From the NCBI GenBank assembly GCA_951406725.2, contig OX597825.1:25730001-25794000 (forward strand): a stretch of DNA of 64,000 nucleotides, read 5' to 3'. Shown here one piece after another: positions 8,101 through 51,757 of this stretch. The stretch is from Octopus vulgaris. Lineage: Eukaryota. Numbering within the stretch: the first letter of the stretch is position 1; every line of letters starts with the position of its first letter. The notes under the pieces were generated by a model. That model saw nothing but the letters and a program-made list of their open reading frames with translations. It was not told the origin of the DNA and did not search any database. The translations under genes were made by a program, and so were the position numbers.

Positions 8101-8452
8101 CAACATAAATTATAGTTTCACCTTTATAGTCTAGACTGGTGCCATTTGGACTTCTTCAGATTCATCACCGTTTCATTTAAATGAGGACGTAAGCATTGCT
8201 ACATTGCAATGACTCTCAATAGTTGTATTCCATATTTAGAAGCTGTGTCAGTCGACATTGACCAACGCTTTGCAAGTGTTTAGGCCTGAGCAAGATTTAT
8301 TGAGTATGATTGATAGTGATCTATATATATATATATATATATAAAAACTTTTTTAAAACTATTTCTAATACTTAAAGAAAATCTCTCTCATATAGTGTTT
8401 GCTCAATTCAACTCACGAAAGTATGGGGGTAAAGACATTAAAAAATCAAATG

Positions 8453-8527
8453 CAAAGGTTATTTGAGAACGTACGTTTCAAGATTAGTCAAACTCGACAT
8501 TTCTATCATCAGCTCAGAACTCCTTGG
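8453..8527 (-). ncRNA. Type I hammerhead ribozyme-like motif (inverted copy)
   Basis: Reverse complement of the motif at 8963-9037. Confidence 0.6.
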
Positions 8528-8962
8528 TTTGGATTTGAAAACACTGAAAGTGGGAGCATACCCTTTCGGCTTCTTATCGCTTCTGAAGATCTGCTCGAAA
8601 CTAACAGTGCCAGCACACCCAAAATATGCAAGCGAAGAATTTCTGCTCTCCCCTTTCCACCAGCGTGGGTTAAAATCAGTAAACACTATGCTTTTTCGGT
8701 AAATCCGAAACATTAAATAGAGAGAGATGAATTATAATTTCAACAATTGAGGGTAAAATTAATTAATTATTAATCAATGTTTCGGATTTACCGAAAAAGC
8801 ATAGTGTTTACTGATTTTAACCCACGCTGGTGGAAAGGGGAGAGCAGAAATTCTTCGCTTGCATATTTTGGGTGTGCTGGCACTGTTAGTTTCGAGCAGA
8901 TCTTCAGAAGCGATAAGAAGCCGAAAGGGTATGCTCCCACTTTCAGTGTTTTCAAATCCAAA

Positions 8963-9037
8963 CCAAGGAGTTCTGAGCTGATGATAGAAATGTCGAGTTT
9001 GACTAATCTTGAAACGTACGTTCTCAAATAACCTTTG
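8963..9037 (+). ncRNA. Type I hammerhead ribozyme-like motif
   Basis: UGAG-CUGAUGA(8978-8984)-stem II (AGA..GUCG/UGAC..UCU)-GAAA(9011-9014)-CGUACG-UU-CUCA; stem I UGAG/CUCA extended by AAGG/CCUU; predicted cleavage after 9022. Confidence 0.65.
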
Positions 9038-9526
9038 CATTTGATTTTTTAATGTCTTTACCCCCATACTTTCGTGAGTTGAATTGAGCAAACACTATAT
9101 GAGAGAGATTTTCTTTAAGTATTAGAAATAGTTTTAAAAAAGTTTTTTTAGCTACTATTTCTAATGAGTTCAGTATGTGGCAAAGTAATTTATTTTACTA
9201 AGCCCTTTTATATAATGTAATAATTTAAATTCGCCTTAAATGGTCCCTTTACATACTGAACACTTGGTGAAATTGATTAATAATTAATTAATTAATTTTA
9301 CCCTCAATTGTTGAAATTATAATTCATCTCTCTCTATTTAATGTTTCGGATTTACCGAAAAAGCATAGTGTTTACTGATTTTAACCCACGCTGGTGGAAA
9401 GGGGAGAGCAGAAATTCTTCGCTTGCATATTTTGGGTGTGCTGGCACTGTTAGTTTCGAGCAGATCTTCAGAAGCGATAAGAAGCCGAAAGGGTATGCTC
9501 CCACTTTCAGTGTTTTCAAATCCAAA

Positions 9527-9601
9527 CCAAGGAGTTCTGAGCTGATGATAGAAATGTCGAGTTTGACTAATCTTGAAACGTACGTTCTCAAATAACCTTT
9601 G
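9527..9601 (+). ncRNA. Type I hammerhead ribozyme-like motif (second tandem copy)
   Basis: CUGAUGA 9542-9548, GAAA 9575-9578; identical to 8963-9037. Confidence 0.65.
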
Positions 9602-9878
9602 CATTTGATTTTTTAATGTCTTTACCCCCATACTTTCGTGAGTTGGAATTGAGCAAACACTATATGAGAGAGATTTTCTTTAAGTATTAGAAATAGTTTT
9701 AAAAAAGTTTTTTTAGCTACTATTTCTAATGAGTTCAGTATGTGGCAAAGTAATTTATTTTACTAAGCCCTTTTATATAATGTAATAATTTAAATTCGCC
9801 TTAAATGGTCCCTTTACATACTGAACACTTAGTGAAATTGATTAATAATTAATTAATTAATTTTACCCTCAATTGTTG

Positions 9879-9920
<42 letters not shown>

Positions 9921-36083: not shown

Positions 36084-36599
36084 CACATTTAATATCTTCC
36101 ATTTACCGTCTTAACGCAGACAGGTAGTAAAACTCCGGTAATGGAAGGTAAATAGATATCATATAGCACAGTTTTATTAAACCACATTTCAAATTATTAA
36201 ATTATGTATTTTTTCTATACTCTATATTACATACTTTATTAAATTATGGTATTTCATATTATAGTTAATTAGCTTATAATATATTAATGTATCTAAATTT
36301 GGACGTAAAATTATATGGACGATTTTAACGGGTGATGACAATCCATTCATAAAAAACACACACACTGCATACAAACTCATACACAAGTAACACTGTATAG
36401 AAGCACGCACAAACATTGTATACCCCCACACATCTATCTATATATATCTATCCATATACACAAGTGGCTGTGTGGTAAGAAGCTTGCTTCCCAACCACAT
36501 TGCCCCGAGTTCAGTCTCACTGTGTAGGAGTCGTGAATGTCTGCTGTTTTCTACAAGGTATAAGTTCTTGGTTGTATCAGAAAAAAGTGTCGTTTTTTA

Positions 36600-39410
36600 T
36601 TCACAGCTCCTACTCAACAGCATCATTAATAATTACACCAAAGCTTAGCCACAAATGTATAACGAAATTAAATTAGATAAAATAATAGAGGTTCTTCCAA
36701 TAAAAAGACACCTTTATAAGTATTAAAGAACATAAAAATAACTTCCTGTCTAATCCTAAATGTAGACTTATTAACCCAGCTAAATCAGAAATCTGTAGTA
36801 TTAGTTAGTGGAGGCGCAATGGCCCAGTGGTTAGGGCAGCGGACTCGCGGTCATAGGATCGCGGTTTCGATTCCCATACCGGGCGTTGTGAGTGTTTATT
36901 GAGCGAAAACACCTAAAGCTCCACGATGCTCCGGCAGGGGATGGTGGTGATCCCTGCTGTACTCTTTCACCACAACTTTCTCTCATTCTTACTTCCTGTT
37001 TCTGTTGTACCTGTATTTCAAAGGGCCGGCCTTGTCACTCTCTGTGTCACGCTGAATATCCCCGAGAACTACGTTAAGGGTACACGTGTCTGTGGAGTGC
37101 TCAGTCACTTACACGTTAATTTCACGGGCAGGCTGTTCTGTTGATTCGGATCAACCGGAACCCTTGTCGTCGTAACCGACGGAGTGCATCCATTAAGTAT
37201 TAGTTAAGAAACTTTAGGAAAAATCAATGCGAAAGTCAGAAATGCTACTAGGTTAGTAAAATGCTCCAATAGTATAGAAATCGTTGATTGGTTTAAATCC
37301 ATTAGGAATAAGAATAAATTGAGATATACACAATTCGATATTGTCGATTTCTATGCCTCTATCGCTAAGGAACTGCTAGATAAAGCGCTCACCTTCGCAA
37401 GCGAATTTATAGAAGTTTGTACACAAGATAAGGACATAGTCTTCCATGCTAGAAAGACGTTACTCTTCAGCGAGAACACAGAGTGGGTCAAGACTATCGA
37501 TGATACAGAGGGTGCTTTCGATGTGAGCATGGGGTCATATGATGGAGCAGGCATATGCGATCTCATTGGAGTATTCTTACTCGATGCGTTGGGCAATACT
37601 TTTCCTGACGTATATTTCGCCATTTACAAAGATGATACCCTGCCCTAGCTTTAACCACAAATACCAATGGACCAGCACAAGATCGGTGAAAATGATGAAA
37701 ACGTTTGGTTTTAGCATAATTACAGATACCAACCTGACGGTTGTCAATTTCTTGGATGTATCCTCAGATTTAAACAATAATATTTACAAGCCTTATAGGG
37801 ATTCCAACGATAGAATTAGTTATATAGGTTCCTCTCATCTCCCTATAGTGTTTAAAAATTTATTTAAAGACATTATCAAAAGAATTTCTTGCCTCCCCTC
37901 CGATAGGGACATTTTTAATAGTGTTGCCTCAGTATATAATAATTCTCTAAAAGATAGTGGATTTAGCGAGGAAATAACCTATACATATGTTACCAGTTCA
38001 ATAATAAAGAAAAAGAAACACAGGAATAGGAAAACTATCTGGTTCACAGCCCCTTATTCCACCGAAGTTACCTTTAATATAGGTTAAATATTTCTTAGCA
38101 CTTATAGATAGACATTTTCCAATTAATCATAGTTACAGAAAGCTCTTCAATAGACATAACTTAAAAATCAGTTTTAGGTCAACTACTAATTTTAAAAATA
38201 TAATCGCACACAATACACAAAAACAACAGAATGAAACCAGGTGTTCATGCAAGGATAAAAAATTGAGCCCGCTAAATAGAGCTTGCATGAGCGAGACCAT
38301 CATTTATGAAGCCACCGTAGACTCAACAACCACTAAGGACATAGTTTCGTCAAGGTAATATGTGGGTCTCTCAGAGGGGAACTTTAAAGCCAGGTTCAGC
38401 AATCACTCCTTGAGCTTCAGACACTGGGATAAAAGAAAAACAATCAAATTATCCAGTGATATATAGTGCTTAAAAGAAAAAGGTGTTAATTACAACATCC
38501 ATTGGGAGATCTTAGCCAAGTGTAAGCCTTACACCGACGGCATTGGAAAGTGCAGTCTTTGTGAAATGGAAAGATGGCTCATCTGGAAAAGCAGCTTAGA
38601 CCCCGCTACATGTCTAAATTCAAGAACTGAACTTTTTGGGTCATGTCCGCATATTGCTAAATATTTGTTACGTTTTTGATTCCCCCAAAGACCACAGATA
38701 GAACCTGAATTTTATTTTGTGTCCACTTACAAGCATTTTATCTTTATATATTTTGTATATATACTTTTTACATATTTTTATATCTATTTTTACATATTTT
38801 TTCTGTATATTACATTTCACCCTGCATTTTTCTTGTGCATGTGCATATATAGATGTGTATATGAACATATTTGTGCGCACATGGGCATAAATACGTGTGT
38901 GTGTGTATGTGCGTTTGTGCGAGTATGTATATGTTTACATGTGTATGGTTGCGTATATATGTGGATGTACATGCATGTGTTTCACGCGAGTGTGAGTGAG
39001 CATATGCATACATAGCATGTGCATTTTCTCCTAACGCGAGAAAATTCATTCTTGCCTGTGGAACCTACCATGTTTATAGAAACACGAGTTTCTGCCGCTC
39101 TAGGTCTCTGGATAAGCCGCCATTGTCCAGACACCAGCCAGGTTCACAGCCTTCTTCAACCAATCGTCGCCCGTTTACTTCCTTGCAGCAACAGACTGCC
39201 GACCACAGCCACGCCATCAGATCCAGCAGAAGTGAAGTCATTTGAATCTTTGTTGCTGACTGTAGTATGAACATCATTCCTTTTGGCAATCTTCTATTAT
39301 AAATATTATTATATTATAAATTAATATAAGAGGAATAAATCGTCGCTTTTTCAACATTCAAATCTTATTGTTCTTTTTTCAACACCATGTCATTATAATT
39401 AGTGACCTAC
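36600..39410 (+). mobile_element. Penelope-like retroelement (Naiad-type RT plus C-terminal GIY-YIG), pseudogenised
   Basis: KEHKNNFLSNPKCRLINPAKSEI; QFDIVDFYASI; FDVSMGSYDGAGICDLIG; IYKDD; VNFLDV; IWFTAPYS; GIY-YIG region IIYEA...YVGLSEGNFKARFSNH...CSLCEME...LNSRTELFGSCPH; many stops/frameshifts; coding ends ~38680; 3' boundary approximate. Confidence 0.88.
36808..37195 (+). mobile_element. SINE family C inserted in the Penelope RT, with 11-bp TSD
   Basis: TSD AGTATTAGTTA at 36797-36807 and 37196-37206. Confidence 0.92.
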
Positions 39411-39602
39411 GAACTCTTATATATATATATATAAAATATACAAAATGGGACAAGAATGCAAAACATCCGGACAGTTAGGTGATATAAAAATGGAACAACA
39501 AAACATCCAGATAGACGATACAAAGGAGTCAAAGACGGGTCATTCGAAGTTTTCTTTCCTCAGTCAAGTACCAGGTTATCTTCGCAATTTCGGCTGATTA
39601 TT

Positions 39603-39646
<44 letters not shown>

Positions 39647-42806: not shown

Positions 42807-43180
42807 AGGTGCCGGCGTGGCTGTGCAGTAAGAAGCTTGCTTCCCAAATACAAGGTTCCGGGTTCAGGATCTTCTACTTTAGCCTCGGTCCGGCCAAATC
42901 CTTGTGAGTGGATTTGGTAGAAAGAAGCTCAACGGATATATATATATATATTTGTGTCTGTATGTTTATATTTATATGTATATATGTATTTGTGTCCTCT
43001 CCACCGCTTGACAATCGGTGTTGGTATGTTTATATCCACGTAATTTAGCAATTCGGCAAAAAGAGCGATAGAATAAGTACTAGACTTACAAAGAATATAA
43101 ATCCTGGTGACGATTTGATCGACTGAATGTATTGCTCCAGCATAGCCGTAGTCAGATGACTGAAACAAGTAAAAGAAGTA
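42807..43180 (+). mobile_element. SINE family A; its 3' ~140 bp is duplicated at 43988-44125
   Basis: Family A head and tail; 43041-43180 recurs at 43988-44125 with one substitution and one 1-nt indel. Confidence 0.85.
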
Positions 43181-43202
43181 TATATAGAAGTATATAAAAG
43201 AA

Positions 43203-43243
<41 letters not shown>

Positions 43244-43333
43244 TTTGTTGGCACTGTTAGTTACGAGCAGATCTTCGAAAGCGATGAGAAGCCGAAAGGG
43301 TATGCTCTCACTTTCAGTGTTTTCAAATCCAAA

Positions 43334-43408
43334 CCAAGGAGTTTCTGAGCTGATGATAGAAGTGTCGTGTTGACTAATCTTGAAACGTACGTTCTCAAAT
43401 AACCTTTG
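43334..43408 (+). ncRNA. Type I hammerhead ribozyme-like motif
   Basis: CUGAUGA 43350-43356, GAAA 43382-43385, then CGUACGUU-CUCA; core identical to locus 1, with differences only in the stem II region and distal stem I. Confidence 0.65.
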
Positions 43409-43891
43409 CATTTGATTTTTTGATGTCTTTACCCCCAAACTTTCGTGAGTTGAGTTGAGCAAGCACTATATGAGAGAGGTTTTCTTTAAGTATTAGAAAT
43501 AGTTTTAAAAGTTTTTTAGCTGCTATTTCTAATGAGTTCAGTATGCGGCAAAGTAATTTATTTTACTAAGCCCTTTTATATAATGTAATAATTTGAATTC
43601 GCCTTAAATGTTCCCTTTGCATACTGAACACTTGGTGAAATTGATTAATAATTAATTAATTTTACCCTCAATTGTTGAAATTATAATTAATCTCCCTCTA
43701 ATTAATGCTTCGGATTTTACCGAAATAAGTATAGTGTTTGCTGATTTTAACCCACGCTGGTGGAAAGGGGAGAACAGAAATTCTTCGCTTGCATATTTGA
43801 GTTTGTTGGCACTGTTAGTTACGAGCAGATCTTCGAAAGCGATGAGAAGCCGAAAGGGTATGCTCTCACTTTCAATGTTTTCAAATCCAAA

Positions 43892-43966
43892 CCAAGGAGT
43901 TTCTGAGCTGATGATAGAAGTATCGTGTTGACTAATCTTGAAACGTACGTTCTCAAATAACCTTTG
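43892..43966 (+). ncRNA. Type I hammerhead ribozyme-like motif
   Basis: CUGAUGA 43908-43914, GAAA 43940-43943; one G>A change weakens stem II. Confidence 0.55.
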
Positions 43967-44123
43967 CATTTGATTTTTTGATGTCTTTAATTTAGCAATT
44001 CGGCAAAAAGAGCGATAGAATAAGTACTAGACTTACAAAGAATATAAATCCTGGTGACGATTTGATCGACTGAATGTATTGCTACAGCATAGCCGTAGTC
44101 AGATGACTGAAACAAGTAAAGAA

Positions 44124-44163
<40 letters not shown>

Positions 44164-51179: not shown

Positions 51180-51757
51180 AAGGCGGCGAGCTGGCAGAGA
51201 CAGTAGCCCGCCGGGAAAAATGGTTAGCAGTATTTCGTCTGCCGCTACGTTCTGAGTTCAAATTCCGCCGAGGTCGACTTTGCCTTTCATCCTTTCGCGG
51301 TCGATTAAATAAGTACATGTTACGCACATGGGTCGATATAATCGACTTAATCCGTTTGTGTGTCCTTGTTTGTCCCCTCTGTGTTTAGCCCCTTGTGGGT
51401 AGTAAAGAAATAGGTATTTCGTCTGCCGGTACGTTCTGAGTTCAAATTCCGCCGAGGTCGATTTTGCCTTTCATCATTTCGCAGTCGATTAAATAATTAC
51501 CAGTTATGCACTTGGGTCGATATAATAGACTTAATCCGTTTGTGTGTCCTTGTCTGTCCCCTCTGTGTTTAGCCTCTTGTGGGTAGTAAAGAAATAGGTA
51601 TTCCTAAGTTCAAATTCCGCCGAGGTTGACTTTGCCTTTCATCCATTCGGGGTCGATAAATTAAGAACCAGTTACGCACTGGGGTCGATGTAATCGACTT
51701 AATCCCTTTGTTTGTCTCCTCTATGTTTATCCCCTAGTGGGCAATAAAGAAATAAGA
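51180..51757 (+). mobile_element. SINE family B concatemer: one head plus three ~184-bp bodies
   Basis: Body restarts (GTATT) at 51230, 51414 and 51598 after the tail AAAGAAATAG. Confidence 0.88.

Follow-up and report, generated by a model that had tools for sequence, protein, structure and literature searches.

The question raised by the DNA of Octopus vulgaris analysed here (the window, a stretch of 64 kb in all) is whether a short motif at positions 8963-9037 encodes a self-cleaving RNA and, if so, whether one copy of it is sufficient for cleavage or a second one has to take part. In the preliminary description it was regarded as a hammerhead ribozyme with an atypical core, in which a U-U apposition closes helix II, the cleavage triplet is GUU and a 10-nt palindrome implies dimeric catalysis. 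As judged from its anatomy, the motif is confirmed as a genuine encoded type I hammerhead, for which self-cleavage is predicted. Its parts and its further copies in the window are:

8964-9037, + strand: focal type I hammerhead including an extended stem I, with outer pairs 8964-8972/9030-9037 and four inner base pairs 8974-8977/9023-9026.
8978-8984, + strand: 5' box of the core, CUGAUGA (C3 to A9), without a variant among those listed.
8985-9010, + strand: helix II, with either a U8985.U9010 mismatch or an A-U closing pair flanked by an extra N10 and N11, then 3 bp, a 3x3 internal loop, 3-4 bp and a variable loop.
9011-9022, + strand: GAAA box, helix III (A-U, C-G and a GUAC loop) and GUU triplet, helix III lying within the palindrome 9013-9022.
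8453-8526, - strand: hammerhead of the inverted copy at locus 1, a pattern match.
9528-9601, + strand: second tandem hammerhead at locus 1, 564 nt downstream of the focal one and its predicted dimer partner.
43335-43408, + strand: fourth hammerhead copy, at locus 2, with C3 at 43350.
43893-43966, + strand: fifth hammerhead copy, at locus 2, with C3 at 43908; one G>A change breaks an inner helix II pair.

In the numbering of the focal copy, C3 is at 8978 and A9 at 8984, followed by a U at 8985, helix II at 8986-9009 and a second U at 9010, with G12 at 9011, A15.1 at 9014, U16.1 at 9021 and U17 at 9022. CUGAUGA and GAAA are intact in five of five copies, as are UGAG before C3, CUCA after U17, the U after A9, the U preceding G12 and the GUU where the cut is expected, which bears out the preliminary description on all these points; the five copies represent only two insertions, and the three at locus 1 are identical over the motif. 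Helix I is in register behind N17, with four Watson-Crick pairs after GUU (an NUH triplet), and the cut is predicted, from the NUH rule, after U9022. The alternative of taking C9023 as N17 was rejected, as stem I would then fail to pair. The usual R10.1-Y11.1 pair is absent, being replaced by U.U in strict numbering and by A-U if an extra N10 and N11 are counted; this pair is treated as usual rather than defining, because an active natural exception, HHR_Amex2, exists. Helix II has an energy of -3.3 kcal/mol, and a register with A8986-U9010, which scores +0.8, was rejected on energy. In the fold of the 75-nt motif, stem I contains an internal loop, its inner pairs have probabilities of about 0.6, and helix II contains the 3x3 loop.

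The sequence AACGUACGUU (9013-9022) is a perfect palindrome, which ends there without further extension. In a monomer it provides a helix III of 2 bp with the GUAC loop, A15.1-U16.1 being present, while its 8-nt part can form an intercopy duplex of 8 bp with a computed energy of -9.8 kcal/mol, in agreement with the earlier estimate of about 2 bp in a monomer versus 8 bp in a dimer. Most of the palindrome would be implied by helix III pairing together with A14 and U17, and the extra information would then reside in the GUAC loop only, expected by chance about once in 16 cases.

Two other strings in the window resemble the core. One, on the opposite strand of the repeat unit (8907), was rejected: its helix II is unpaired, its N17 would be G, and it is absent from locus 2. 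The other (39420-39605, - strand) is a degraded hammerhead-like string (CUGAGGA, a short hairpin, GAA) in a segment of about 170 nt bounded on either side by (TA)n, and fails the relaxed descriptor described below.

A search with the pattern CUGAUGA-N20-40-GAAACGUACGU gave five matches in the 64-kb window (8469-8512 on the - strand; 8978, 9542, 43350 and 43908 on the + strand) and none in 100 shuffles, a control that is generous because the pattern was derived from the motif itself. A relaxed hammerhead descriptor, composed post hoc, found exactly the five copies in the window, five matches in 200 shuffled windows and six in 5000 shuffled units; a chance origin is unlikely because this descriptor so seldom matches shuffles. 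The check with Rfam hammerhead models that the preliminary description had proposed was run: the Rfam search gave no hit at gathering and no hammerhead family up to E 10, and what it matched instead were miRNA models, on the inverted repeat, and snoRNA or CRISPR models below threshold.

The U-U had been suspected of making standard searches miss the family, and a published descriptor and Rfam do miss it, although the cause is probably mostly a different one. The RNAmotif descriptor of 2014 permits, in the text available of PMC4209133, 'a possible extra N10' and 'a possible extra N11', but has no loop III and a loop II of at most 10 nt. Re-implemented, this published descriptor for the minimal hammerheads of Penelope-like elements (PLE min-HHR) found none of the five copies. 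The obstacles were loop III and the length of the interrupted helix II: all five were recovered only if the descriptor admitted both a loop III and a loop II as long as 22 nt. When the extra N11 was forbidden in the relaxed descriptor, the number of copies found was again zero. Thus, only descriptors in which a pair is obligatory at this place lose the motif on account of the U.U; the U.U is not the sole cause and had already been provided for in 2014. The failure of the descriptor comes mainly from loop III and the interrupted helix II, and these may be the responsible features for Rfam as well.

A pattern scan for relatives matched at least 117 metagenome loci and 43 viral loci; among the 161 matches listed, a loose filter on the stems retained two, and by blastn none of 160 loci was similar to the unit. 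The two, L078:595 (-) and L121:1001 (-), are GC-rich metagenome or viral matches unrelated to the unit, with the core, a paired stem I, GUC and the same palindromic loop, and they are possibly hammerheads.

The five hammerheads belong to a repeat with a unit of 558-564 bp, non-coding and with 33% GC, which is present at two loci:

9023-9586, + strand: predicted cut-to-cut monomer of 564 nt, 33% GC, non-coding and strongly self-paired.
8776-9887, + strand: direct part of locus 1, about two tandem units that differ by one substitution and two gap columns.
8340-8778, - strand: inverted partial copy at locus 1, equal to 9272-9715 and head to head with the direct part.
8322-8343: (TA)n at the left end of locus 1, from the sequence.
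9881-9920: (TA)n at the right end of locus 1, from the sequence.
43240-43989, + strand: locus 2, 1.3 tandem units with a period of 558, 93% identical to locus 1, with other start and end points in the unit.
43043-43240: left copy of a long duplication at locus 2, a putative target-site duplication of about 136 nt plus (TA)n, with one substitution and two gap columns relative to 43990-44125.
43990-44162: right copy of the long duplication at locus 2, ending in (TA)n.

Locus 1 spans 8340-9887 in total, its copies being one substitution apart each, and no target duplication beyond (TA)n was seen there. The insertions end at differing points of the unit at the two loci, yet the whole period is common to both; terminal inverted repeats common to both loci were not found. 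Insertions of PLEs, as described in PMC8557442, include a partial tandem with an adjacent inverted copy and are biased to (TA)n, and the shape of locus 1 is of this type (partial tandem, adjacent inverted copy, microsatellite target). At both loci at least two consecutive motifs are present, which fold at -11 kcal/mol, though not into the active fold (the criterion being below -5). The unit also includes near-perfect hairpins at 9121-9165 and 9266-9302, with indel variants in loops and arms, and several DNA palindromes.

No remnant of a reverse transcriptase (RT) or GIY-YIG endonuclease was found in the unit or in a frame at either locus. A tRNA-derived SINE head was not indicated, with zero tRNAs in the window and none of its 20 B-box-like matches inside the units. 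A stop-free frame of 106 codons runs antisense to the hammerhead (8774-9094 and 42929-43465, both on the - strand), and at locus 2 changes of +1 and -1 around the motif restore the same frame; the search with the 106-aa product returned one candidate and no hit, with Atlas scores of at most 0.80, and the open frame is probably a coincidence. Two other frames of the unit gave no significant Pfam hit. A coding role of the unit was rejected, there being no protein relatives for the longest frame and no Pfam support.

The surrounding window is AT-rich and crowded with microsatellites and SINE-like repeats, including 2.7 tandem copies of a 184-bp SINE-like repeat at 51230-51716 with further dispersed copies. 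At 36530-38680 (+ strand) there is a decayed frame with an Atlas score of 0.97 to eukaryotic clusters, a third of whose members carry PF26215, and with no significant Pfam hit; it shows putative features of a Penelope-like RT with a GIY-YIG endonuclease, and a SINE-like repeat interrupts it at about 36810-37195. This frame and the unit have no DNA similarity, and no autonomous partner could be linked to the unit within the window.

The unit or a part of it was found in 20 of 24 listed sequencing runs with four organism labels, and no RNA run was among the listed runs containing it. In one run per label, the contigs with the unit numbered 11,335, 3,330, 2,137 and 708, and head-to-tail unit joints occurred in contigs of three of these four runs. 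U8985 is about 98% fixed in three runs and 91% in the fourth; T>A at this position, which would give an A-U pair, makes up 1.9, 2.1, 1.9 and 8.5% of summed depth. Among the variants listed for the four runs, none of 5% or more falls at 8974-8984 or 8999-9050. Those listed within the motif are at 8985, 8990 and 8996-8998, with 8966, 8970 and 8973 just upstream, and the listed variation of the motif is confined to loop II, the internal loop and the extra nucleotide.

None of 49 listed variant places falls in the 27 positions of core, stem I and helix III (P 0.08; 0.04 in a trimmed range), nor in the 39 positions that include the helix II pairs (P 0.025; 0.01 in a trimmed range), in a post hoc test on listed variant rows, with seven substitution rows and one indel row outside; other variant-free runs, 8780-8856 and 9179-9222, are equally long. 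The preliminary description had made its reading depend on the core nucleotides being more conserved than the rest of the unit. The absence of listed variants from the structural positions agrees with that expectation, but conservation of the core above the rest of the unit is borderline, because the comparison is post hoc, some rows are outside the listing and equally long invariant runs exist.

Fold models, which ignore tertiary contacts and co-transcriptional folding, rate the 75-nt motif no better than shuffles (z 0.27) and give the active monomer fold a predicted probability of 7e-5, with a helix III pair probability of 0.16. The cut-to-cut monomer, by contrast with the short motif, is strongly self-paired (z -6.8 linear and -4.8 circular; overall z -4.5 to -6.8), and the opposite strand of the unit folds as strongly (z -6.0 versus -4.8 in the circular form). 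For tandem transcripts the prediction, at both loci, is that the two palindromes pair with each other (P 0.98-1.0) and close off the spacer. At locus 1 the double hammerhead has an advantage of 12 kcal/mol over two monomer folds and of 6 kcal/mol over one, while at locus 2 it costs about as much as one monomer (15.1 versus 15.2 kcal/mol). It lies above the free ensemble by 10 kcal/mol at locus 1 and by 15 kcal/mol at locus 2, being disfavoured because a predicted hairpin traps the core. In this hairpin (8964-9011, + strand) the 5' strand of stem I and the core pair with helix II; it is predicted in the monomer, circle and tandem of locus 1 and is not the preferred fold at locus 2. Allowing A14-U17 pairing brings a gain of about 2 kcal/mol, and the final two pairs of the 10-nt palindrome may therefore be a hindrance to catalysis and not an aid.

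The claim that cleavage may require a tandem transcript is uncertain: the pairing of palindromes in the predicted tandems makes dimer folding plausible, but a helix III of 2 bp plus tetraloop belongs to the type for which cleavage as a monomer is reported in invertebrates. Motifs with a short palindromic helix III act as dimers, in line with the preliminary description, and cleave slowly (PMC6765202), those with a stable helix III mostly cleave as monomers in the invertebrate type I class (PMC7761336), and GUU is among the cleavable NUH sites (PMC3138052), all as given in the portions of these sources consulted. On account of these reviews, cleavage is likely to be dimer-enhanced rather than strictly dimer-dependent.

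The explanation that probably holds, and that is put forward with some reserve, is that a non-coding retroelement of the non-LTR retrozyme type, non-autonomous and with a unit of 558-564 nt, carries the motif as its type I hammerhead; cleavage would be aided by dimer formation and the resulting circle copied by a PLE. Read-through transcription of a tandem copy would give an RNA with two hammerheads, whose folded spacer might bring the two palindromes together in a shared helix III of 8 bp. The double hammerhead would cut after each GUU, slowly in a single copy and better in the pair, and would release a monomer of about 560 nt, to be circularised by a host ligase. The circle might then be copied by the RT and endonuclease of a PLE with priming in (TA)n, so that insertions would come out permuted, inverted and longer than one unit. 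A ribozyme on its own would be weakened by the U.U, by U17 and by the interruption of helix II, so that the circle stays intact. The steps from transcription to insertion are proposed because of precedent in published systems. The explanation is favoured by a motif beyond chance, no listed structural variants, head-to-tail joints and a full period with differing ends, as well as by the PLE-like shape of insertion, the long duplication, the palindrome pairing, an active analogue in Amex2 and the unit lengths of retrozymes related to pseudo-LTRs (pLTRs). It is weakened by the borderline conservation, the core-trapping hairpin, the equal self-pairing of the opposite strand, the cleavage of only one of nine dimers tested elsewhere, the weakness of PLE hammerheads as dimers and the lack of a linked autonomous partner.

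Two other readings, each rather unlikely, keep the element and change the role of its ribozyme. The ribozyme might cleave well as a monomer, the palindromic loop being incidental or merely helpful. The equal cost of monomer and dimer folds at locus 2 is consistent with this, as are published statements, in the text available, that a helix III of 2 bp capped by a tetraloop is 'more stable ... similar to invertebrate HHRs' (PMC7229834), that in invertebrates type I motifs with a stable helix III mostly cleave efficiently as monomers (PMC7761336) and that coral and mussel hammerheads cleave at 0.8/min and 0.1/min, respectively (PMC7229834); yet the active monomer fold and the helix III pair have the low predicted probabilities given above, and the closest assayed analogue, the axolotl HHR_Amex2/Rtz_353, reaches, as a monomer, just 22% cleavage in 1 h, its dimer being much more efficient (PMC7229834, Cervera and de la Pena 2020). 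At the other extreme, the hammerhead may be a nearly inactive relic and the repeat may have spread by PLE machinery without self-cutting, a reading that has only a modest chance of being correct. The U.U, U17, the weak helix II and the competing hairpin occur here all together, conservation is borderline and the fifth copy has a broken helix II pair; among published cases, eight of nine Xenopus dimers gave no product, with one of nine predicted retrozyme dimers tested being cleaved (bioRxiv 10.64898/2026.07.22.740005), and Naiads proliferate without canonical hammerheads (PMC8557442). Against a relic stand the 39 structural positions with no listed variant in four runs of four organism labels, the fixed unit length with one ribozyme per unit, which fits unit-length processing, and the activity of Amex2 despite its U.U (PMC7229834).

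That the unit is instead the pLTR of an autonomous PLE, the two loci being its 5'-truncated tandem and inverted insertions, is improbable. Traits of PLE-type ribozymes (an extra nucleotide after A9, a 4-bp helix I and a long helix II), the PLE-like insertion shape (PMC8557442) and the occurrence of the D. willistoni hammerhead Dwi_HHR2 in both PLEs and a tandem array (PMC4209133) would suit it, but the unit is devoid of an RT or GIY-YIG remnant, and the same complete period at both loci, together with the contig joints, is unlike random truncation. This reading overlaps with that of a retrozyme, because retrozymes were proposed to derive from pLTRs (bioRxiv 10.64898/2026.07.22.740005). It is hardly credible that the motif is a chance hammerhead-like string in a DNA-level repeat, such as a satellite or a MITE-like hairpin element. 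The missing match to Rfam hammerhead models, a descriptor relaxed to fit, several DNA palindromes in the unit and the similar folding of both strands might be quoted for it; the relaxed descriptor nevertheless matches only the six of 5000 shuffled units, the anatomy of Dwi_HHR2 is matched position by position at the helix II base and in helix III (PMC4209133), and the ends are permuted, with no terminal inverted repeats common to the two loci.

The listed variants suggest one extension of the retrozyme reading. Transitions on the hammerhead strand are unequal (A/G 20 versus C/T 10 among 40 listed rows, P 0.03), and over 8780-9343 (+ strand), with variants polarised by majority, A>G exceeds T>C (13 versus 5, P 0.02), and no imbalance is seen between G>A and C>T; this is a post hoc comparison, on listed rows only and of uncertain polarity. 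Four other repeats of the window had no consistent transition skew, and no preference for a 5' U at A>G sites was found (P 0.32). It is conceivable, though unlikely, that this is a young retrozyme family across several related species with a doubly gated ribozyme, its core trapped by a hairpin in monomer and circle and freed only through palindrome pairing in tandem RNA, and that the genomic copies of the family record A-to-I editing of a circular RNA fixed by reverse transcription. If true, an animal retroelement would have diversified through host RNA editing of its circular intermediate, and the editing would support the hammerhead strand as template.

If active, the motif would add a large and recently mobile retrozyme family to a lineage without such a description in the literature searched, and would offer a natural construct for studying how partner-dependent cleavage arises from the combination of a U.U, U17 and a palindromic loop. 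The analysis also demonstrates that Rfam and a published descriptor miss such families. Knowledge of hammerhead chemistry and of dimer cleavage is left unchanged. The interpretation given in the preliminary description is, overall, partly supported; its 'atypical' core is overstated, since a U.U occurs in hammerheads of HHR_Amex2, D. willistoni and Hydra and the supposedly odd features are already described in fly, salamander and mollusc ribozymes.

Among the closest known systems are the PLE hammerheads, comprising min-HHR (PMC4209133) and variants with a small palindromic helix III (reportedly Lunse et al. 2017). Among assayed hammerheads, HHR_Amex2, for which circular RNAs were found (PMC7229834), resembles the octopus motif in being of type I, with a helix II that starts from a U.U and a helix III made up of 2 bp and a tetraloop, and in belonging to a high-copy non-coding tandem; it differs, as far as its description in the text allows comparison, in a unit of 350 bp and in being described as canonical, with contacts between loops 1 and 2. 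An even closer anatomy at the helix II base is that of Dwi_HHR2, with 440 sequences located in PLEs and in tandem arrays of as many as 85 repeats of 450 bp (PMC4209133), where CUGAUGA is likewise followed by U, the U.U base by A-U, G-C and A-U pairs, and the 2-bp helix III has a palindromic tetraloop. Its triplet is AU-A/C instead of GUU, however, its helix II is continuous, and its unit is 450 bp versus about 560 here.

In the supplement of PMC4209133 (Cervera and de la Pena 2014), as extracted, a hand count over 56 representative PLE-type hammerheads gave 15 with GUU, 14 with GUC and 24 with U17, so that GUU is the commonest triplet, both Lottia rows included. In the Hydra PLE row, too, U stands on either side, the second U being placed by inference from the supplement text, because the GAAA column was extracted apart from the rows, and a drawing backs the D. 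willistoni case only. As G10.1-C11.1 is called highly conserved in that paper, the U.U is a minority state (2 of 56 rows). PLE hammerheads share with the octopus motif an extra nucleotide after A9 (between 9 and 10.1), a short helix I and a long helix II, palindromic positions 15.2-16.2 with loop III, a frequent GUU and the dimer model, and their published opposite-strand pairs, 100-700 bp apart, are similar to the layout of locus 1. They are described as weak even as dimers (PMC4209133). The PLE min-HHR consensus differs in its G10.1-C11.1, absent here (A-U, as in the D. willistoni row), and no RT or GIY-YIG frame is linked to the octopus unit.

Retrozyme traits are present in the unit, which is non-coding, has a GC content below 50% (33%) and many dispersed copies, and at locus 2 is bordered by the duplication of about 136 nt; long duplications are described for retrozymes, as are units of 150-450 bp (PMC7229834). 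Li, Clavereau and Pollet (bioRxiv 10.64898/2026.07.22.740005) tie animal retrozymes to pLTRs, with units of 51-972 bp, so that the length of 558-564 bp lies above the former range and inside the latter. Molluscs do not figure in their sample of 31 vertebrates, 3 insects and 1 coral, and inverted copies and (TA)n targeting, which are found here, are absent from the discussion in the available text of that preprint. No description of this family was found in the literature on hammerheads in octopus or cephalopods, on G10.1/C11.1 and on retrozymes since 2021, and by the literature searched it is a new family of the non-LTR retrozyme type. It has in common with the non-LTR retrozymes of the preprint (bioRxiv 10.64898/2026.07.22.740005) a minimum of two successive units, each having a complete type I motif, and mostly few repeats per locus, and it is probably moved, as its insertion pattern suggests, by Penelope-like elements.
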